In this document: positions 1 through 8,549 of the stretch, piece after piece
Position numbering within the stretch: the first letter of the stretch is position 1
Layout: every line of letters starts with the position of its first letter
DNA from: Escherichia coli
GTDB taxonomy: Bacteria; Pseudomonadota; Gammaproteobacteria; Enterobacterales; Enterobacteriaceae
Length of the DNA: 64,000 bases
Reading direction: 5' to 3' (one strand)
NCBI RefSeq assembly: GCF_044324875.1
Contig: NZ_CP172185.1
Translations under genes and position numbers: made by a program
The notes under the pieces: model-generated
Database searches by the model: none
The model's input: the letters and a program-made list of their open reading frames with translations, nothing else
What the model was told of the DNA's origin: nothing

Positions 1-845
1 TTTATCGTTTTCGTGGTGCCAGCAATGCACTGTCGCATCCGGCACTGAACGGGGCGGACCGTCTCTGGCTGACGCAAAGTTTTCGTTTTGGTCCTGCCGT
101 GGCCGGGGTGGCCAGCCAGTTACTGAAGCGTGCCGGCGAGAGCCGTGAGGTGACCGGCAGGGGCGGGGATGATGAAGTGCTGACGGCAGGTGAAATGCGT
201 GCGCGCGTGAAGGCAGGGAAGATGACCGGTCACAGGGCGATACTGAGCCGGACGGTGGCCGGTGTGATTGGCACCGCACTGATGGCGGCAATGCGTGGCA
301 GGAAGGTTTACTGGGTGGGGGGCATTGAAGGCTACAGAACGGAGGCACTGGAAGATCTTTACTGGTTTCAGATGGATATGCCGGAGCGGATGCACAGTGA
401 CAGACTGCGGAAGGACTACCGGGGTTTTGACGAGTACCGTCATATTGCGAAGGTGACGAAGGATGTGGAAATGAATCAGTCCATTCGTCTGCTGGAGCTG
501 TGCTTTCCGCTGCCGAAGAAACTCGAACTTCTCAGAAAGCACACCGTCACGAATGAACAGGAGGCGGATATCACGGTCTCAACGGCACACCGCAGTAAGG
601 GACTGGAGTGGTCACTGGTGGTACTCGATGATGATTTTCAGGATATCACCGACCCGCTGATAAGCGAGCAGGAGCGGCGGGATGAAACCAATCTGCTCTA
701 TGTGGCGGTCACCCGGGCGCGCAGAACGCTGGTTCTCAATGAACTCATGCAGCAGCTGACGGAAGCTGCCGGCGATGGTGGTGCACCCGGAAACGCGCCG
801 GTGCAGGGGAAGGAAGACGATGGTGTGGAGGGAGAGGATGTTTAA
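1..845 (+). CDS. Superfamily-1 (UvrD/RecD-like) DNA helicase, C-terminal part; 5' end lies outside the window
   Basis: Frame 3 is open from position 3 to the stop at 843-845. Translation shows SF1 motifs: YRFRGA (motif III-like) at the window edge, TAHRSKGLEW (motif V), YVAVTRAR (motif VI). Confidence 0.6.
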   Translation, partial: YRFRGASNALSHPALNGADRLWLTQSFRFGPAVAGVASQLLKRAGESREVTGRGGDDEVLTAGEMRARVKAGKMTGHRAILSRTVAGVIGTALMAAMRGRKVYWVGGIEGYRTEALEDLYWFQMDMPERMHSDRLRKDYRGFDEYRHIAKVTKDVEMNQSIRLLELCFPLPKKLELLRKHTVTNEQEADITVSTAHRSKGLEWSLVVLDDDFQDITDPLISEQERRDETNLLYVAVTRARRTLVLNELMQQLTEAAGDGGAPGNAPVQGKEDDGVEGEDV

Positions 846-2367
846 GCGGTTCAGACGTATGCTGCCCGGCACAAAGGGCACGGAGCCTGGCGTGGTCGCG
901 CCGGTGATACCGGCAGGGTTTTATGCGCCGCTCACGGCAGAGGCACTGTTATCACCAGAGCACAGGGAGCTGAGGCTCAGGCAGGTCTGGGATAACAATC
1001 CGATGCCCCGTGATGTATACGACAGGATGTGCCTTGAACCACTCAGCCGGCTGCTGCTGAACACCCAGAACGTCCCGGCAACACGGGAAGGACGGTGGTC
1101 CCGTGCCGGTGGATTTGGTGATCTGACGGTACTGTACACCACGTATGCCGTTCGTCTGGCAAGAGGGTACATGTTTCCACCGGATGCGACCCCGGAAGAC
1201 CAGGCGGCTCAGGCCGCAGTCTGGCATGCGGTGATTTTCTGGTCAGCGCTGTTTTACCACCTGCCCCTGCTGGCGCACCTTGAGGGGGAACTGCTGAGTG
1301 GGCGGGGCTGGCAGCCAGGAATTTCTGTGCCTGACGAACCTTTCCGTTTCCGGTTCAGGAAGACGGCGCCGCAGGGTACGGAAGCGCAACAACTTGCGGC
1401 CCTGACTGCCGGCACGCTGTTACCGGACGGCGCAACGGCCTGGCTTGTGACGGCGCCGGGCGCACTGCAGAATCTGGCCGGGGCGCTCTGGCATCAGCAT
1501 CCCGGGATGGCGCTGATTCGTGATGTGCTGCAGGAAGCGGCAAGGCAGACAGAGAGTCCGCTGAATACCTGCGCTGTCACTGCGCCGGTTACTGCGGAGG
1601 CTTCAGCAGACATCCGTCCTGCTGACCCGGTGGTGACCGGCAGCACGGACAGTGTGGTGGCAGTCACTGAGGTGCAGCCGGCAGAGGAGGTGAAGACTGA
1701 GAGCGTGCAGACAGAGACTGAAGGTGGTGGTGAGTCCGCCGGGGCGTCAGAGGTGCCGTCCGCACAGCAGGAACTGACGGTTCAGACAGCGCCAGTGGTG
1801 ACGGCAGATGATGAAGCGGTCAGTGCTGCTCCTGCGGATCAGGACACAGCAATGCTGCTGAGTCTTTTTTCAGCAGATGAGTCCGAAACTGCTGAACCTG
1901 AAAACAGTATTAAATCGTCAGCCGATCGGGACGGCCAAAGTGACGTACCGGCAGTACAGGGAGAACAAACCAGCGTTATTTATCCGGAGGGCGAAGCAGA
2001 TACGGAAGAGGTGGATTTTATTACTTGGCTGAAATCGGGGTTGTCATCGGGGATGATTGAAATAAATACACCTTCCGCGAGAGTGCATTGTATTGCGGGG
2101 TATGTTTTTTTGTGTGTCCCGGATATTTTTTATCTGTATCAGAAAATGACGGGAAGCCGTCGTGACCGCAGGAGTGTTCAGGCGTTGTTTGAACGTTCCC
2201 GTATTCACAAAATCCGGGAAGGTGAGCGTTTTTTCAGCCTGCATCTGTATAGTGTACCTGACAGAACAGGGAGTTATAAAGCTGTAAGCGGATATCTGGT
2301 TAAAAGCCGTTATCTGTGTGGTTATAACGCAGTGCCCGGGGACAGTGAATACATTGCTTTTCCATAA
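775..2367 (+). CDS. Hypothetical island protein (530 aa as maximal ORF) with a central acidic low-complexity linker
   Basis: Long ORF overlapping the helicase stop. Alternative starts at 820 (AGGAAG upstream) or 838. Residues ~265-420 are rich in T/E/A/V/S/D/Q; N- and C-terminal parts look globular. No family recognised from memory. Confidence 0.5.
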   Translation: MVVHPETRRCRGRKTMVWRERMFKRFRRMLPGTKGTEPGVVAPVIPAGFYAPLTAEALLSPEHRELRLRQVWDNNPMPRDVYDRMCLEPLSRLLLNTQNVPATREGRWSRAGGFGDLTVLYTTYAVRLARGYMFPPDATPEDQAAQAAVWHAVIFWSALFYHLPLLAHLEGELLSGRGWQPGISVPDEPFRFRFRKTAPQGTEAQQLAALTAGTLLPDGATAWLVTAPGALQNLAGALWHQHPGMALIRDVLQEAARQTESPLNTCAVTAPVTAEASADIRPADPVVTGSTDSVVAVTEVQPAEEVKTESVQTETEGGGESAGASEVPSAQQELTVQTAPVVTADDEAVSAAPADQDTAMLLSLFSADESETAEPENSIKSSADRDGQSDVPAVQGEQTSVIYPEGEADTEEVDFITWLKSGLSSGMIEINTPSARVHCIAGYVFLCVPDIFYLYQKMTGSRRDRRSVQALFERSRIHKIREGERFFSLHLYSVPDRTGSYKAVSGYLVKSRYLCGYNAVPGDSEYIAFP

Positions 2368-2397
2368 CAGCACCGGGTCATTCATCCGTTCAGGGAG

Positions 2398-3510
2398 ATG
2401 TATTCCCCTATGAAGAAAGATGTCGAAAAAATAACGTGGGAGGAATTACTCTTTGAGTACTTCCTTGAGAAAAATCTTAAACCTGATACTGAACACAGCT
2501 ACCGCAAAGTTGTCCGTCTGTTTGATAAGTTCCTGGGCGGTGATTCCTGGCCCGGCGATGTCACACCGAGAGACATTCAGCGATGGCGACGTCATATGCT
2601 TAAAGATCAGGGGCGTTCAGTAAACACCTGGAATAACAGAGTGTCACATCTCCGACCGCTCCTGGCGCTTGGGATCAAGAAAAAGTGGTTACCACAGACG
2701 GAAAATCCGCTTGATGGCACTTCAGTGCCCGGGGCATCAAAACAGAAAAAAACGCTCACTGATAAAGAGATGGTCAGGATTTACCGTACAGTTCAGGCTT
2801 TTGCTGAAGCTGAGGCCAATAAGATGGTGATCTGTGACAGGCGGCGCAATGCGATGTACCCTGCATGGTACTGGCTGATCGTGCTGGATACGCTGCGCTT
2901 CACGGGGATGCGTTTTAACCAGCTGAAACATATCAGGCTGAAGGATATTCATGAGGATGAGGCGGTGATTACCCTTCAGCTGGAAGGGAGTAAAACCCGA
3001 CGTGAATGGCGTGTGCCGATTGTGGAATCGTTACGACTTTCACTGAAACATCTTATTGAGTGCGCCCGTGTCAATGGTGCGTCGGATAATGACTATCTCT
3101 TTGATGTCTGCCTGTACAGCGAGCATTACAGTCCCGGGAAATACCAGTACTGTGCCAAAAGAGCGCATCAGTCGGTCAAATCTTTTTTCCGCAGACTGAG
3201 CCGTGAATGTGGTTTTTTTGTCTCGTCACACAGATTCAGACACACACTGGCAACAAAGCTGATGGCGGCACCGGAGCGTAATCTGCACATGGTCAAATCC
3301 ATTCTGGGGCACAGGAGTGTTGCCACCACCATGGAGTATATTGATTTTTCGGTGGAAGTTGCTGCTGAGGCACTGGAGGCTGAACTCGGTTTATCCACGG
3401 ATGAGGCGACAAAAAGACGGATTAAAGAGGCGAAAAAACGCCGTGAGGCCAGTACCGGGAAAAAGGAAAAACAGGAAAGTTCTGGAGGGGAACTTTCTGA
3501 CAAGGAATAA
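2398..3510 (+). CDS. int: Tyrosine-type site-specific recombinase / integrase
   Basis: Conserved catalytic signature: TGMR..QL (box I Arg), HRFRHT (HxxR), GHRSVATTMEY (His and Tyr nucleophile). Adjacent to the tRNA 3' end. Start may be the ATG at 2410. Confidence 0.8.
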   Translation: MYSPMKKDVEKITWEELLFEYFLEKNLKPDTEHSYRKVVRLFDKFLGGDSWPGDVTPRDIQRWRRHMLKDQGRSVNTWNNRVSHLRPLLALGIKKKWLPQTENPLDGTSVPGASKQKKTLTDKEMVRIYRTVQAFAEAEANKMVICDRRRNAMYPAWYWLIVLDTLRFTGMRFNQLKHIRLKDIHEDEAVITLQLEGSKTRREWRVPIVESLRLSLKHLIECARVNGASDNDYLFDVCLYSEHYSPGKYQYCAKRAHQSVKSFFRRLSRECGFFVSSHRFRHTLATKLMAAPERNLHMVKSILGHRSVATTMEYIDFSVEVAAEALEAELGLSTDEATKRRIKEAKKRREASTGKKEKQESSGGELSDKE

Positions 3511-3713
3511 ACATGCTTGACATCGGACCAGAATGGTGTAAGCATTTTTGCGTATGCGAGAGCGTGACACCTGTTACCAGCAGGTGCCACGCTTGAGGAT
3601 ACGATACTGAAACCACAGTGTAACCAGACTTACACGGAGATTTCGTTATGACCGGATCCTGTATTAGACGCCCGTTAAGGATCTCATCCCTTAACCAGCG
3701 TACTTTGATGCGT

Positions 3714-3789
3714 TTGGTGCCCGGAGGCGGAATCGAACCACCGACACGGGGATTTTCAATCCCCTGCTCTACCGACTGAGCTATCCGGG
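3714..3789 (-). tRNA. pheV: tRNA-Phe (GAA anticodon), 76 nt including CCA
   Basis: Reverse complement is GCCCGGATAGCTCAGTCGGTAGAGCAGGGGATTGAAAATCCCCGTGTCGGTGGTTCGATTCCGCCTCCGGGCACCA. Matches E. coli tRNA-Phe except for the T-stem (see findings). Confidence 0.9.
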
Positions 3790-3895
3790 CAACGGGGCGC
3801 ATTAAACCTGATTCGCCTCGTCTCGTCAATCAAATTTCTTCAATTTACTGCAGACTGCACAATCTATCATCACTTTGCCGCTAATGCACGCATTG

Positions 3896-4624
3896 TCAGG
3901 CAAACCAGGCGGTCCAGGCGGCGGAAAGCGGCATTGCCAGAAGGAGTGCTGGAAGCATGTTGACCACCGGGAACATTTTAATGCCACAGATGCGTAATCC
4001 GGTTGCCAGCAGCAATAAACCGCCTACGGCGCTGAAGTCTGCCATCATCGACGGTGTGGTCAGCGGTAATATCAGCGCGGCAGCCCACGCCAGCGTTAAC
4101 TGGATGATCAGTAATGGGATACTAATTACCGACACCGCAATACCCAACGAGCAGGCGAAGATCATCGCCGTAAAGAAATCGAGAAATGACTTGGCGATTA
4201 AAATACTCGGATCGCCGGTCATCCCTTCGTTCATCGCCCCGAAGATCCCGGTGCCGCTGGCGCAAAACAGGACAATAATCGCGACATAATTCTGAATAAA
4301 AGATTCATGCGCTGGCTTCTTACGTGAGTGGCGAAACAGATTTTGTGCTTTGGTGACCGCGGTATTGACGCCTTTTTCCAGCAGACAAATTTCGCCGATT
4401 AATGCACCGAGTAAGGTTGCTAACACCATCGCCGGAAGGTTGGCGCATTTCACCACCAGTAAAATACCAATCCCCAGCGATGCCAGACCAAAAATTGATG
4501 TCATGGAGACGCGGATACGTTCCGGTAAGCGTTGGCTAAGGAGTGCACCGAGAACGCCACCCAGTAATACTGCACTTGCGTTGATAAAAGGACCGATGAC
4601 CACAAGAGTTCCTGTTAGCTGCAT
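3896..4624 (-). CDS. yqgA: Inner-membrane protein YqgA (DUF554 family)
   Basis: Polytopic hydrophobic ORF; sequence and position match K-12 YqgA between pheV and speC. Confidence 0.85.
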   Translation of the reverse strand: MQLTGTLVVIGPFINASAVLLGGVLGALLSQRLPERIRVSMTSIFGLASLGIGILLVVKCANLPAMVLATLLGALIGEICLLEKGVNTAVTKAQNLFRHSRKKPAHESFIQNYVAIIVLFCASGTGIFGAMNEGMTGDPSILIAKSFLDFFTAMIFACSLGIAVSVISIPLLIIQLTLAWAAALILPLTTPSMMADFSAVGGLLLLATGLRICGIKMFPVVNMLPALLLAMPLSAAWTAWFA

Positions 4625-4995
4625 TGTCTGATTTTCTTATTATGAACGTTTGGCTCCTTCGATGGCTTGTTTGTTCGCAAAGTCCTGGCTTGCACGCTCT
4701 GCTGAAAGGTGCCATGATTGCGCGAATTTTCTCCTCTCTGTACGGAGTTTGCCCGATGCACGCCATCTCCTTACATTCTCTCGCTTATCGCCGTTTCGCG
4801 CGAAACTCCTCGCCTTTTCTGCTCATGCGGTGAAGTTAACGCACGCTCACTGCAGGACAACAGTAAAATCAGAGCGTTTCTGCTTTTACTGATGTCTGGC
4901 GGTCGGAGCTGGTGACCAGTTTGACCCATATCTCGTGGGGCAGGGTTTTTCACCTTGTCCGGTATTCTTACTTCCCCGAAACGGGTTTTGCGCTT

Positions 4996-7131
4996 ATGAA
5001 ATCAATGAATATTGCCGCCAGTAGTGAACTGGTATCCCGACTTTCTACTCATCGCCGCGTGGTGGCGTTGAGAGATACTGATTTTACGGACGTCGCGGCA
5101 GTCGTCATTACCGCTGCGGATAGCCGCAGTGGCATTCTTGCGTTGCTTAAGCGCACCGGTTTTCATCTACCGGTGTTTTTGTATTCCGAACATGTTGTTG
5201 AATTACCTGCGGGCGTTACGGCGGTAATCAACGGCAACGAGCAGCAGTGGCTGGAGCTGGAATCCGCAGCCTGTCAGTATGAAGAGAATTTGCTGCCACC
5301 GTTTTATGACACGCTGACGCAGTACGTTGAGATGGGCAACAGCACTTTTGCTTGCCCTGGACATCAACATGGTGCGTTCTTTAAAAAGCATCCTGCCGGA
5401 CGCCATTTTTACGATTTCTTTGGTGAGAACATCTTTCGCGCCGATATGTGTAACGCTGACGTAAAATTGGGCGATCTGCTTATTCATGAAGGATCGGCGA
5501 AAGATGCGCAGAAATTCGCAGCCAAAGTCTTTCATGCCGATAAAACCTATTTTGTCCTGAACGGCACATCGGCAGCGAATAAAGTGGTGACGAATGCGCT
5601 GTTAACGCGTGGCGATCTGGTGCTCTTCGACCGTAACAACCATAAGTCGAATCATCACGGTGCGCTGATTCAGGCGGGGGCGACGCCGGTTTATCTGGAA
5701 GCTTCACGTAACCCGTTTGGTTTCATTGGCGGTATTGATGCGCACTGTTTTAATGAAGAGTATCTGCGCCAGCAAATTCGCGACGTTGCGCCAGAAAAAG
5801 CTGAGTTGCCGCGCCCGTTTCGCCTGGCGATTATTCAGCTGGGAACCTATGACGGCACTGTCTATAACGCCCGCCAGGTGATCGATACCGTTGGGCATCT
5901 GTGTGATTACATTCTGTTTGATTCCGCGTGGGTCGGTTACGAACAATTTATACCGATGATGGCGGATAGCTCGCCGCTGCTGTTAGAACTTAACGAAAAC
6001 GATCCGGGGATTTTTGTGACCCAGTCGGTGCACAAACAGCAGGCGGGATTCTCACAGACGTCGCAGATCCATAAAAAAGATAACCATATCCGCGGACAGG
6101 CGCGTTTTTGCCCGCATAAGCGGTTGAATAATGCCTTTATGCTCCATGCTTCTACCAGCCCGTTCTATCCGCTGTTTGCTGCACTGGACGTTAACGCCAA
6201 AATTCATGAAGGGGAGAGTGGGCGTCGGCTGTGGGCGGAGTGCGTTGAGATAGGGATTGAAGCGCGCAAGGCTATTCTTGCGCACTGTAAGCTGTTCCGC
6301 CCGTTTATCCCGCCCGTTGTTGATGGCAAATTGTGGCAGGATTATCCGACGTCAGTGTTAGCCAGCGACCGCCGTTTTTTCAGTTTTGAGCCGGGGGCGA
6401 AGTGGCACGGCTTTGAAGGATATGCCGCGGATCAGTATTTTGTTGATCCGTGCAAGCTGTTACTCACTACACCAGGTATTAATGCCGAAACTGGCGAATA
6501 TAGCGACTTTGGCGTTCCGGCGACGATTCTGGCGCACTATCTGCGTGAGAACGGCATTGTGCCGGAGAAGTGCGATCTCAATTCCATTCTGTTCTTATTA
6601 ACGCCGGCGGAAAGCCACGAGAAGCTGGCACAACTGGTGGCGATGCTGGCGCAATTTGAACAGCATATTGAGGATGACTCACCGCTGGCTGAGGTGTTGC
6701 CGAGCGTTTATAACAAATATCCGGTGCGCTATCGCGACTACACCCTGCGCCAGTTGTGTCAGGAGATGCACGATCTGTATGTCAGTTTCGACGTCAAAGA
6801 CCTACAAAAAGCGATGTTCCGCCAGCAGAGTTTCCCGTCAGTGGTGATGAACCCCCAGGATGCGCATAGCGCTTATATTCGCGGTGAAGTGGAGTTGGTG
6901 CGGATTCGTGATGCCGAAGGGCGAATTGCGGCAGAAGGGGCGTTGCCTTATCCACCAGGCGTGCTTTGCGTGGTACCCGGAGAAGTCTGGGGTGGGGCGG
7001 TTCAACGTTATTTCCTTGCGCTGGAAGAAGGGGTGAATTTGTTGCCGGGATTTTCGCCGGAGCTGCAAGGTGTCTATAGCGAAACCGATGCAGATGGCAT
7101 GAAACGATTGTACGGTTATGTGTTGAAGTAA
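4996..7131 (+). CDS. speC: Ornithine decarboxylase, constitutive
   Basis: Translation from MKSMNIAASSELVSRL matches SpeC over its full length; start chosen at the conserved N-terminus inside the longer ORF. Confidence 0.95.
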   Translation: MKSMNIAASSELVSRLSTHRRVVALRDTDFTDVAAVVITAADSRSGILALLKRTGFHLPVFLYSEHVVELPAGVTAVINGNEQQWLELESAACQYEENLLPPFYDTLTQYVEMGNSTFACPGHQHGAFFKKHPAGRHFYDFFGENIFRADMCNADVKLGDLLIHEGSAKDAQKFAAKVFHADKTYFVLNGTSAANKVVTNALLTRGDLVLFDRNNHKSNHHGALIQAGATPVYLEASRNPFGFIGGIDAHCFNEEYLRQQIRDVAPEKAELPRPFRLAIIQLGTYDGTVYNARQVIDTVGHLCDYILFDSAWVGYEQFIPMMADSSPLLLELNENDPGIFVTQSVHKQQAGFSQTSQIHKKDNHIRGQARFCPHKRLNNAFMLHASTSPFYPLFAALDVNAKIHEGESGRRLWAECVEIGIEARKAILAHCKLFRPFIPPVVDGKLWQDYPTSVLASDRRFFSFEPGAKWHGFEGYAADQYFVDPCKLLLTTPGINAETGEYSDFGVPATILAHYLRENGIVPEKCDLNSILFLLTPAESHEKLAQLVAMLAQFEQHIEDDSPLAEVLPSVYNKYPVRYRDYTLRQLCQEMHDLYVSFDVKDLQKAMFRQQSFPSVVMNPQDAHSAYIRGEVELVRIRDAEGRIAAEGALPYPPGVLCVVPGEVWGGAVQRYFLALEEGVNLLPGFSPELQGVYSETDADGMKRLYGYVLK

Positions 7132-7132
7132 G

Positions 7133-7170
7133 AAAAAAACGGGTCACCTTCTGGCGACCCGTTTTTCTTT
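7133..7170. terminator. Bidirectional intrinsic terminator between convergent speC and nupG
   Basis: Hairpin CGGGTCACC/GGCGACCCG flanked by an A-run and a T-run. Confidence 0.5.
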
Positions 7171-7176
7171 GCGTAA

Positions 7177-8433
7177 TTAGTGGCTCATCGTCTGTGTGCC
7201 TGTCGGGACACGAACGTGTTTATATTTGAACATCGCCATGAACGCGAAGGCCAGAACCACGGAGTAACCAGCGAAAATCAACCATACGGTCTGCCAGTCG
7301 GTAATGCCGTTTTGGGTGTACATCTCAACAACTTTACCGCTCACGATGCCGCCAAGGATACAGCCGAAGCCGTTAGTCATCATCAGGAACATCCCCTGCG
7401 CACTGGCGCGAATTGCCGGGCTAACTTCTTTTTCGACAAACACCGAACCAGAGATGTTGAAGAAGTCGAATGCGCAACCGTAAACGATCATCGACAGTAC
7501 CAGCAGCACGGTACCGAACGGAGTCGGGTCGCCGTAAGCAAACAGCGCAAAACGCAGGATCCACGCCACAATACTGATCATCATTACGTTCTTAATACCG
7601 TAGCGGCTTAAGAAGAACGGGATAGTCAGAATGAACAGGGTTTCAGAGATCTGCGAAATCGACATGATGATTGACGCATGCTGCACAATAAAGCTGCTGG
7701 CAAACATCGGATCTTTGTCGAAGCTGTGCAGGAAGGTATTACCGAACATGTTGGTAATCTGCAGTTCCGCGCCCAGCAGCATTGAGAAGATGAAGAAGAT
7801 TGCCATACGCTTGTTTTTAAACAGCGCGAATGCATCGAGGCCCAGCAGGGTTGTCCAGCTCTGATTCGCTTGCTGTTTAGCAACCGGAATATGCGGCAGA
7901 GTCAAGGTAAACAGAACCAGAATGGCGGAAAGTGCTGCGCCAATATACAGCTGCATGTGGCTTAATTCGAAGCCAGACAGGCTCACCACCCACATTGCCA
8001 TGATAAAGCCGATGGTGCCCCAGATACGGATTGGCGGGAAGTCAGTAACGATATCCATCCCGGCATTTTGCAGGCGATAGTAAGAGATGGTGTTGATTAA
8101 CCCAAGCGTTGGCATATAAGCAAACGAGTTAATCAATATCACAAGGAACATCGCCTCCGGCGTCGTGACCTGTGCCGCCATGAACAGCGTGATAGCGCCA
8201 ATGGTGTGGCAAATGGCATATACCCATTTCGCACTTAACCATTTGTCGGCCACAATCCCCAGCAGCGCAGGCATAAAGACCGCGGCGATACCCAGTGAAC
8301 TATAAACTGCGCCAATAGAAGCACCGTCAAACTTCAGGGTAACAAACATATAGGAGCCGAGGGTCGTCAGCCAACTTCCCCACAGACAGAACTGCAGAAA
8401 AGAGAGGATTTTCAGCTGCAGCTTAAGATTCAT
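7177..8433 (-). CDS. nupG: Nucleoside:H+ symporter
   Basis: Translation from MNLKLQLKILSFLQF matches NupG (418 aa). Confidence 0.95.
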   Translation of the reverse strand: MNLKLQLKILSFLQFCLWGSWLTTLGSYMFVTLKFDGASIGAVYSSLGIAAVFMPALLGIVADKWLSAKWVYAICHTIGAITLFMAAQVTTPEAMFLVILINSFAYMPTLGLINTISYYRLQNAGMDIVTDFPPIRIWGTIGFIMAMWVVSLSGFELSHMQLYIGAALSAILVLFTLTLPHIPVAKQQANQSWTTLLGLDAFALFKNKRMAIFFIFSMLLGAELQITNMFGNTFLHSFDKDPMFASSFIVQHASIIMSISQISETLFILTIPFFLSRYGIKNVMMISIVAWILRFALFAYGDPTPFGTVLLVLSMIVYGCAFDFFNISGSVFVEKEVSPAIRASAQGMFLMMTNGFGCILGGIVSGKVVEMYTQNGITDWQTVWLIFAGYSVVLAFAFMAMFKYKHVRVPTGTQTMSH

Positions 8434-8549
8434 GTTAATTTCCTCACATCGTGATGCGGATGAGTGTTTGAAAAAGCACATTTGACCGTGCGAGATGATG
8501 GGATTCTATCAACTTCGCGGACTGTTTTTTTGTTACCTGCGGCAAATAA

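Follow-up and report, generated by a model that had tools for sequence, protein, structure and literature searches.

The left end of the window, i.e. the whole stretch of 64,000 nucleotides that was analysed, harbors the terminal genes of an ICEEc2/SPI-7-type integrative conjugative element (ICE) of ~85 kb, which is inserted at pheV of E. coli. The gene order at this end of the ICE is UvrD-like helicase, traI, integrase and tRNA-Phe, with a type IVb pil operon located upstream. The features are as follows:

1–845, plus strand: 3' part of a UvrD/Rep/PcrA-like SF1 helicase gene (open reading frame, weak C-terminal matches, RefSeq annotation)
826–836, plus strand: Shine-Dalgarno-like GGAGGGAGAGG within the 3' end of the helicase gene, upstream of the traI start, putative ribosome-binding function
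838–2367, plus strand: traI, assigned as a motif-less MOBH3-type protein of the MOBH family, relaxase-like, 509 amino acids (TIGR03760, Pfam, PGAP, homologue N-termini)
898–1572, plus strand: N-terminal TraI_2 domain, residues ~21–245, HD-type helical fold (AlphaFold2, Foldseek, motif columns)
1564–2013, plus strand: acidic low-complexity disordered linker, residues 243–392 (composition, AlphaFold2 pLDDT)
1843–1869, plus strand: short hydrophobic helix in the linker, D336–F344, DTAMLLSLF, conserved, possible docking motif
2014–2364, plus strand: C-terminal TraI_2_C domain, residues 393–509, winged-helix-like (2IPQ by sequence and fold)
2398–3510, plus strand: tyrosine recombinase (integrase) of the ICE (RefSeq annotation; PGAP start at 2410)
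3715–3790, minus strand: tRNA-Phe (pheV), attachment site of the ICE (ARAGORN)

The ICE body lies to the left of the window and encodes parA, dnaB-PI and parB, which are located at the end opposite traI, as well as topoisomerase III, ssb and traD. Further ICE genes encode a conjugative ATPase, a TraG N-terminal-domain protein, many TIGR037xx ICE proteins and the type IVb pil operon. The ICE ends are marked by an imperfect direct repeat of ~52 bp, whose attR copy occupies positions 3715–3768 in tRNA-Phe and was aligned with the attL end beside parA; yqgA, speC and nupG are located to the right of pheV. With traD and the conjugative ATPase, both parts of the conjugative context of a MOBH protein (coupling protein and type IV secretion system) are present. 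The conjugation genes of the ICE are intact, several cargo genes are frameshifted and IS fragments are present. No second relaxase is annotated elsewhere in the ICE, and its STY4528-family "replication protein" contains no relaxase-like or Rep-like Pfam domain. The integrase matches XerA/XerC/XerD-type models, all below the family cutoffs. The order helicase, traI, integrase was also found in Xenorhabdus koppenhoeferi and many Enterobacterales loci. An integrase gene immediately follows traI in 46 of 57 loci whose traI is devoid of the catalytic motifs described below (motif-less loci) and in 8 of 9 loci in which these motifs are kept (canonical loci).

An open reading frame from 775 to 2367 on the plus strand, originally predicted to encode a 530-residue protein, is indeed present, with in-frame ATGs at 775, 820 and 838, but its start has to be revised. 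In the identical locus in RefSeq, traI begins at 838 according to PGAP, M838 aligns with the N-termini of homologues (52–80% identity), and the Shine-Dalgarno-like GGAGGGAGAGG, read from the sequence, is located 2–12 nt 5' of this ATG; the product is therefore most likely 509 amino acids long, starting at ATG 838, rather than 530. The ATG at 838 overlaps the helicase stop codon (TAA, 843–845; ATGTTTAA), so that the two genes share 8 nt, or 71 nt with the start at 775, and the overlap proposed earlier is confirmed with either start. One homology search yielded 335 homologues and another 259 representatives at 50% clustering. The frame is thus conserved and not a chance ORF.

The protein had been described as belonging to no recognised family. 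Judged from its sequence, however, it is no member of an unknown family but an already catalogued relaxase-like ICE protein of the MOBH family. It scores 193.1 bits against NCBIfam TIGR03760 (ICE relaxase, PFGI-1 class; residues 27–238), which is above the curated cutoff of 161.4, and matches Pfam TraI_2 (PF07514; E 2.2e-16, residues 30–229) and TraI_2_C (PF07515, DUF1528; E 2.1e-15, residues 393–505). It is 100% identical to RefSeq WP_070127793.1, annotated as "TraI domain-containing protein". With 74.7 bits it remains below the cutoff of 200 of the MobH equivalog model NF041494. At the family level there is thus the clear match to a characterised conjugation protein that had been named as evidence against the original prediction, and the proposal of TraI as the most likely carrier of an undescribed function is not sustained: the protein is annotated as TraI and its architecture has been published for MOBH relaxases (PMC6736028). 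It is ordinary except for a known puzzle, namely that it belongs to a branch without any of the catalytic metal-binding residues.

The layout of an N-terminal domain, an acidic linker of about 150 residues and a C-terminal domain was correctly predicted. AlphaFold2 models residues 21–245 with a pLDDT above 93 and residues 390–509 mostly above 90, separated by the linker with values of ~40–50. In the Foldseek comparison, which was proposed along with homology searches for the supposedly unknown protein, the N-terminal domain matched 3KQ5 (E 3e-9) and the YhaM HD-domain protein 9H3F (probability 0.97). The C-terminal domain matched 2IPQ by sequence (E 7.7e-19) and by fold (TM 0.90, rmsd 2.2 Å) and, more weakly, 5VFX, the oriT-binding accessory protein of pCW3 (probability 0.93). 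Of the 150 linker residues, 32 are acidic and 4 are basic (net charge -28), and 81% are T, A, V, E, S, P, Q or G. Across the family the linker comprises 30–232 residues (median 150) with a median net charge of -19.5. A poorly conserved, putatively disordered middle region of ~50–300 residues is a published trait of MOBH relaxases (PMC6736028), and the linker of the protein encoded in the window, by its length and pLDDT, is of this kind. The only helix predicted within it covers residues 336–341. In the homologue alignment T337, M339, L340, S342 and F344 are invariant. A DTAMLLSLF-type motif occurs in 14 of the 24 loci with a linked helicase, but also in one helicase-less locus and in 2 of 18 canonical representatives; its distribution thus does not follow that of the helicase cleanly, and a helicase-docking function is only a weak lead.

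Catalytic motifs were compared in an alignment of 88 representatives, 26 of them canonical and 55 degenerate like the TraI of the window; gonococcal TraI residue numbers were mapped via the motif pattern and spacing given in the paper rather than via the gonococcal sequence. In gonococcal TraI, the motif SExHHH and residues H117, H161, D162, H215 and D267 are needed for Mn2+-dependent cleavage of oriT (PMC6736028). S-E-x-H-H-H, H117, H161-D162-x-x-K165, Y212, H215 and D267 are invariant or nearly so in the 26 canonical representatives. The alternative 3H motif (S103-E104-x-H106-H107-H108) is absent in the TraI of the window, where T82-R83-E84-G85-R86-W87 are found instead. The HD motif and metal ligands (H117, H161, D162, K165, H215, D267) are absent as well, the equivalent positions being L96, Y140-H141, a deleted lysine, A183 and A235, and Y212 corresponds to G180. 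All 9 canonical loci show the ligand pattern HHDHD, whereas 57 loci have lost it. In the degenerate clade, H117 is replaced by L, V, I or M, H161 by Y, W, H, A or R, H215 by A, V, T, S or G, and D267 by A, R, V or I. Scaffold residues are kept by both groups alike (R43, Q77, D95, E120, Q122, W129, W158, R170, R172 and W202). Since all ligands of the dinuclear metal site are replaced, hydrolytic DNA cutting of the HD type is improbable, and the TraI of the window probably does not cut DNA by the mechanism of gonococcal TraI. With the catalytic motifs of characterised MOBH relaxases absent, the label "relaxase" stands for a putative nicking function that is derived from homology and from genetic work on related ICEs.

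Absence of the motifs, similarity to the S. Typhi orthologue and the two PDB entries as top fold matches place the protein in the MOBH3-type, motif-less clade. According to the clade definition as quoted in PMC6736028, MOBH3 includes STY4665 (2IPQ) and 3KQ5; its members are without 3H and HD motifs, "suggesting an alternative function" (Heilers et al. 2019, PMC6736028). The TraI of the window shares with STY4665 of S. Typhi SPI-7 and with 3KQ5 of Coxiella burnetii the three-part architecture and the absence of both motifs, and is ~49–52% identical to the S. Typhi orthologue group. SPI-7 also belongs to the same ICE family, with traI beside the integrase at tRNA-Phe. Unlike STY4665 (551 amino acids), the TraI of the window has 509 amino acids and a shorter linker. 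The likeness to STY4665 and 3KQ5 is one of sequence, fold and context only. According to its title, a 2015 paper connects ECA0613, a putative relaxase, with the mobilisation of HAI2, an island of P. atrosepticum.

[quoted passage not shown] 2019, PMC6736028). Like the TraI of the window, it combines TraI_2, a disordered linker and TraI_2_C, shares the scaffold residues and has its gene on a genomic island that also carries a type IV secretion system, while SExHHH and all metal ligands are missing from the TraI of the window. Canonical TraI proteins of the PFGI-1/ICEclc/PAPI-1 type resemble it in passing the TIGR03760 cutoff, in having the integrase gene after traI at the end of the ICE and in the MPF_G backbone. 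They differ in that all catalytic residues are kept (9 loci, 26 representatives), in their size of ~600–670 amino acids and in the absence of an upstream UvrD-like helicase, and they are only 23–30% identical to the TraI of the window.

The complete helicase has 502 amino acids, the 5' end of its gene being located to the left of the window, and corresponds in the 100% identical locus to WP_073268020.1, a "UvrD-helicase domain-containing protein". The part encoded in the window shows weak matches to UvrD/Rep/PcrA C-terminal regions, and NCBIfam and PADLOC yielded generic UvrD-type matches only. A functional pairing of the helicase with TraI, as originally suggested from the overlap, is plausible. 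A UvrD-like helicase gene is located directly upstream of full-length motif-less traI in 23 of 30 species-level relatives (kinship ignored), and in 9 relatives' loci the two genes overlap by 7 nt. Within 6 kb of traI, such a gene is found in 25 of 30 full-length motif-less loci versus none of 9 canonical loci, again irrespective of kinship. The scan for related loci, run with a 16-sequence alignment, is biased to motif-less relatives in Enterobacterales; it gave 8 canonical loci, and a separate search added the ninth. The co-occurrence for which a test was proposed earlier is therefore seen with motif-less traI, but the pairing is not obligatory, since the helicase is absent from 5 of the 30 full-length relatives and from all 27 short Xenorhabdus forms; these loci also refute a rule by which motif loss would equal presence of the helicase. 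A promoter scan of positions 1–3900 revealed no sigma-70-like promoter, which is weak negative evidence and compatible with an operon.

In the most probable reading, to which we assign a probability of roughly 0.8, the gene is the traI of the ~85 kb ICEEc2/SPI-7-type ICE and encodes a protein of the MOBH3 branch that takes part in a mobility module in a relaxosome or pilot role. This reading builds on the family assignment, the architecture, the lost motifs, the ICE context and the linkage to a helicase, all of which were observed here. At the attR end, helicase, TraI and integrase would together make up the DNA-mobility module of the ICE, with TraI most likely as relaxosome or pilot protein. 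The oriT of the ICE may be recognised by the retained non-catalytic surface of the N-terminal domain and the winged-helix-like C-terminal domain, and the strand may be unwound by the partner helicase, recruited by TraI. The complex would then be passed to the TraD coupling protein and on to the MPF_G type IV secretion system. Three genes for DNA mobility enzymes and a type IV pilus reportedly took part in the transfer of ICEEc2. In PMC6761156, PMC11537424 and PMC13127887, ICEEc2 of E. coli BEN374 is described as a member of the pKLC102/PAGI-2 (PAPI) family with a phe tRNA site and a type IV pilus. The ICE of the window is likened to ICEEc2 by this description (family, phe tRNA, type IV pilus, backbone), and the cargo varies between ICEEc2-type ICEs.

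A less probable alternative is a fully active oriT nickase with a different catalytic set, either with Y61 as nucleophile together with R43, R106, R170 and R172 or with a metal site rebuilt from D95, E120, H141 and E151. The ICE family transfers, and the element carries no further gene annotated as a relaxase. Mutation of 3H or HD in gonococcal TraI did not abolish DNA secretion in vivo, and the roles of 3H and Y212 are unclear even there (PMC6736028). Position 61 is tyrosine in 22 of 24 helicase-linked loci and in 30 of 30 Xenorhabdus forms, and phenylalanine in 30 of 35 canonical sequences; Y61, R106 and E151 are clade-specific, conserved polar residues of the helicase-linked loci. H141 is invariant in the 16 closest relatives, but found in only 32 of 55 members of the wider clade, and Y29 is not positionally conserved. 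Moreover, the five metal ligands are replaced by varied, non-conserved residues across the clade, and most conserved polar residues are common to canonical members and therefore constitute no new active site.

The loss of the catalytic motifs could also indicate a decaying, non-functional relaxase remnant in a degenerate island, a view to which the frameshifted cargo genes and IS fragments of this ICE copy would lend some weight, as would the related ICEKp2, which excises but for which no self-transfer was found (PMC6761156). This is highly improbable given intact full-length ORFs in many Enterobacterales genera at 25–50% identity, with invariant scaffold residues in both confidently folded domains, the intact conjugation genes and the transfer proficiency of pheV ICEs of the same type (PMC13127887). 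Even less credible, and already largely refuted, is an undescribed function unrelated to conjugation, for example in a helicase-containing defence system. PADLOC detected partial GajB/UvrD-core matches in the helicase (at most 68 bits over stretches of 50–100 residues), and an alternative function of MOBH3 proteins has been considered by Heilers et al. (PMC6736028). The GajB similarity, however, is generic to the UvrD core, no GajA is annotated near helicase and traI, and PADLOC gave no match for TraI or the integrase, so that a Gabija-like system was rejected. The matching family models are conjugation-specific, and the gene, for which a defence island or an ICE backbone had been considered as location, lies in a complete ICE, beside the integrase as in most related loci.

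Since the gene is already annotated for conjugation, belongs to an ICE family that has been described and encodes an acidic linker that is a published trait, the finding as originally posed is of little consequence. The sole relaxase-like protein of these ICEs is nevertheless devoid of the residues needed for cleavage in the one biochemically studied MOBH relaxase, and the co-occurrence with the helicase is a concrete, testable handle on DNA processing by a motif-less "relaxase". ICEs inserted at pheV and pheU are conjugative and bring about Hfr-like chromosomal transfer, from which hybrid E. coli clones arise (PMC13127887). Because such ICEs also spread virulence and resistance genes, the nicking and unwinding of their DNA is of practical relevance.

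A more far-reaching reading, which we regard as tentative and rather unlikely, is that the MOBH "relaxase" of SPI-7/ICEEc2-type elements is a non-HD protein dependent on its own helicase, and that the pair represents a distinct way to initiate conjugative transfer. TraI might be a pseudo-relaxase that binds oriT and acts as helicase loader, the nick being made by a different enzyme, or it might nick by metal-independent Tyr/Arg chemistry. In MOBF TraI/TrwC the helicase is fused in cis, and NicK of ICEBs1 works with PcrA/HelP; both are HUH relaxases with a catalytic tyrosine. As in these systems, a protein processing oriT DNA would be coupled to an SF1 helicase, but here the helicase is encoded by a separate gene overlapping the traI start and the HD-fold domain is without a metal site. 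If this reading holds, the different frequencies of a helicase gene near motif-less and canonical traI (25 of 30 versus 0 of 9) would mark the change to such a helicase-dependent protein at the genome level.

The protein encoded between the UvrD-like helicase gene and the integrase gene is no orphan, but the product of an already known, annotated conjugation gene, traI.

775..2367, + strand: open reading frame of traI, as read in the window

This ORF contains three in-frame ATGs (775, 820 and 838). Window positions 1-3800 are 100% identical to E. coli TUM1886 (RefSeq NZ_CP128970), where traI is annotated to start at the position equal to 838 (WP_070127793.1, 509 aa, 'TraI domain-containing protein'). 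Since the N-termini of homologues with 52-80% identity also all align with M838, and a purine-rich run (GGAGGGAGAGG) is located just 5' of this codon, ATG 838 is favoured on sequence grounds over 775 and 820. The originally predicted ORF is thus present, but with a later start and a product of 509 aa; its overlap with the helicase stop is retained and amounts to 8 nt (ATGTTTAA).

The original prediction recognised no family, which does not hold. TraI scores 193.1 bits against NCBIfam TIGR03760 ('integrating conjugative element relaxase, PFGI-1 class'; curated cutoff 161.4) and matches Pfam TraI_2 (E 2.2e-16) and TraI_2_C (E 2.1e-15). The C-terminal domain resembles PDB 2IPQ, the C-terminal domain of STY4665 from S. 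Typhi SPI-7, both by sequence (E 7.7e-19) and, as a predicted model, by fold (TM 0.90, rmsd 2.2 A). Over the whole predicted model there is also a match to 3KQ5, which is a TraI_2/TraI_2_C protein from Coxiella. Weaker fold matches were found to the HD-domain protein YhaM (N-domain) and to 5VFX, a winged-helix accessory protein of pCW3 that binds oriT (C-domain).

AlphaFold2 (48-sequence alignment) predicted confident domains at residues 21-245 and 390-509; the stretch between them has a pLDDT of about 40-50 and a single short helix (residues 336-341). The Thr/Ala/Val/Glu-rich acidic linker was correctly described: residues 243-392 comprise 32 acidic and 4 basic residues (net charge -28; 81% T/A/V/E/S/P/Q/G). 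Striking as it is, the linker is a known family feature, already described for MOBH relaxases by Heilers et al. (PMC6736028), ranging from 30 to 232 aa (median 150) among 48 relatives and acidic in all of them (median net charge -19.5). Inside the otherwise unconserved linker, a conserved, hydrophobic mini-helix, DTAMLLSLF (window 1843-1869, residues D336-F344), is present in 14/24 helicase-linked relatives versus 2/18 canonical MOBH representatives, canonical meaning that all catalytic residues are kept. It may be a docking motif.

The region to the right of traI contains the following feature.

3715-3790: tRNA-Phe

Next to it are yqgA, speC and nupG, and the site is therefore the E. coli pheV locus. 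Right of pheV, window 3896-8481 is ordinary E. coli core chromosome, in which these three genes were read directly; mltC and mutY follow in the identical TUM1886 record. Left of the traI region, that record contains an element of about 85 kb encoding parA, SPI-7-type dnaB, parB, topoisomerase III, ssb, traD, a conjugative ATPase, about fifteen TIGR037xx 'integrating conjugative element' proteins and a type IVb pil operon with shufflon-type pilV, followed by DUF1187, the UvrD-like helicase, traI, the integrase and tRNA-Phe. At both ends there is an imperfect direct repeat (about 52 bp) that corresponds to the 3' half of tRNA-Phe (longest exact stretch 22 bp, window 3743-3764). The integrase-side pheV 3' half differs from the attL copy (L003:18970-19025) by four nucleotides, grouped in two 2-nt blocks. 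The attL copy has the native tRNA-Phe sequence of E. coli, as would be expected after integration into the tRNA 3' end. The element is an ICE of the pKLC102/PAGI-2/SPI-7 family. Such ICEs were first described in E. coli as ICEEc2, according to citing passages in PMC6761156, PMC11537424 and PMC13127887. Cargo genes (contig stretches L002 and L003; NZ_CP128970 904-965 kb) include iha (siderophore receptor/adhesin), ccdAB, ardA, an HNH endonuclease alongside an EcoRI-family methyltransferase, a type III R-M system with a frameshift, and a paralogue of ribosomal protein L31 type B. The kps capsule cluster adjoins the attL end.

The N-domains of 88 representatives, drawn from an exhaustive profile-free search, were aligned, and the residues that matter in gonococcal TraI, as shown by Heilers et al. 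(PMC6736028), were mapped onto the alignment by motif pattern and spacing. The catalytic residues are invariant or nearly so in 26 canonical representatives and are not kept in the query and 55 relatives.

Catalytic residues of gonococcal TraI and their counterparts in the query
Alternative 3H motif S103, E104, H106-H108: T82, R83, G85, R86, W87
H117: L96
H161-D162: Y140-H141
K165: deleted
Y212: G180
H215: A183
D267: A235

Motif loss in the MOBH3 clade is already published, as Heilers et al. state. Residues common to both groups (R43, Q77, D95, E120, Q122, W129, W158, R170, R172 and W202) argue for a retained fold and probably also for a retained, putative DNA-binding surface. The TraI proteins of a metagenome-assembled Enterobacterales genome (L071), Acerihabitans arboris (L076) and Yersinia similis (L077) are intermediate: the H-D dipeptide is kept, the 3H motif, H117, H215 and D267 are gone, and no helicase is located upstream. 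These forms suggest that the active site degenerated stepwise.

For the helicase survey, one genome per species (79 loci) and three contig look-ups were scanned, TraI was classed by five ligand positions, and the flanks were searched for helicase and integrase.

Helicase genes near traI, at loci with at least 1.5 kb of upstream sequence
Motif-less with TraI_2_C, 30 loci: adjacent 23, within 6 kb 25
Canonical, 9 loci: adjacent 0, within 6 kb 0
Intermediate (HD kept, rest lost), 5 loci: adjacent 0, within 6 kb 0
Short Xenorhabdus forms (TraI_2 only), 27 loci: adjacent 0, within 6 kb 0

The suggested functional pairing is thereby supported as a conserved operon (25/30 motif-less loci), which appears to be specific to the motif-less, full-length branch (25/5 vs 0/9, Fisher's exact test, p = 9e-6, uncorrected for shared ancestry). 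The helicase stop and traI start overlap by 7 nt in nine loci, compared to 8 nt in the window, and some of the remaining loci have a gap of 17-175 nt. A promoter scan of window 1-3900 found no sigma-70-like promoter. An integrase directly 3' of traI is near-universal in motif-less and canonical classes alike. In one 572-aa homologue (P0089), TraI is preceded without a break by ~35 residues of the helicase N-terminus, Walker A motif GTGKT included, as if a deletion had fused both genes. Xenorhabdus spp. (L033-L072) carry several copies per genome of a short, motif-less ORF of 270-375 aa (e.g. L037:7887-8918 and L049:7998-8894) without TraI_2_C or upstream helicase; an integrase nearly always follows. 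Small integrative (mobilisable?) elements or remnants of ICEs are possible explanations.

The product of the sole MOB-type gene of a transfer-competent ICE family has two domains, one of HD fold and devoid of a metal site, the other a winged-helix-like C-domain, plus an acidic tether; the gene usually occurs together with those of an SF1 helicase and the integrase. DNA hydrolysis of the gonococcal TraI type is probably absent. Most likely, TraI is the relaxosome or pilot component, which would recognise oriT, recruit its own helicase for unwinding of the strand to be transferred, and dock to TraD. In MOBF relaxases, relaxase and helicase are arranged in cis, an arrangement that the proposed pair of TraI and helicase would mirror in trans. 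Genetic support for a role in mobilisation is second-hand. A separate paper from 2015 mentions in its title ECA0613, a putative relaxase of HAI2, an island of P. atrosepticum.

It is rather unlikely that TraI is an active nickase using other residues in an alternative chemistry. Y61 is specific to the motif-less clade, parts of which conserve R106, E151 and H141; the substitutes at the lost catalytic positions differ across the clade, and there is therefore no uniform new ligand set at those positions. Alternatively, the nick could be made by another enzyme; in the annotation of the TUM1886 element, no other relaxase is found. A decaying relic was rejected, given intact ORFs, invariant residues in both domains and 25-50% identity across genera (Pantoea, Erwinia, Pectobacterium, Serratia, Klebsiella, Edwardsiella, Morganella and others), besides the intact conjugation genes of the present ICE copy. 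A defence system was likewise rejected: TraI and the integrase have no PADLOC match, and the resemblance of the helicase to GajB models is generic, confined to the UvrD core. The point of interest is that the loss of all catalytic residues is linked, clade-specifically, to a dedicated upstream helicase, which brings an acknowledged question about the MOBH3 clade into sharper focus and lends itself to direct experiments.

Of 5426 complete E. coli genomes, 125 contain DNA-level relatives of traI, every one of them chromosomal; only 8 of the 125 have the full-length window allele. Matches of at least 95% identity occur in 37, many from poultry, and mostly represent a mosaic allele (protein P0002, 541 aa). 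Its first 1060 nt (window 838-1897) are ~99.8% identical to the window, followed by a different linker end and a different C-terminal domain, which points to recombination with a breakpoint within the linker, the TraI_2_C domain being exchanged as a module.
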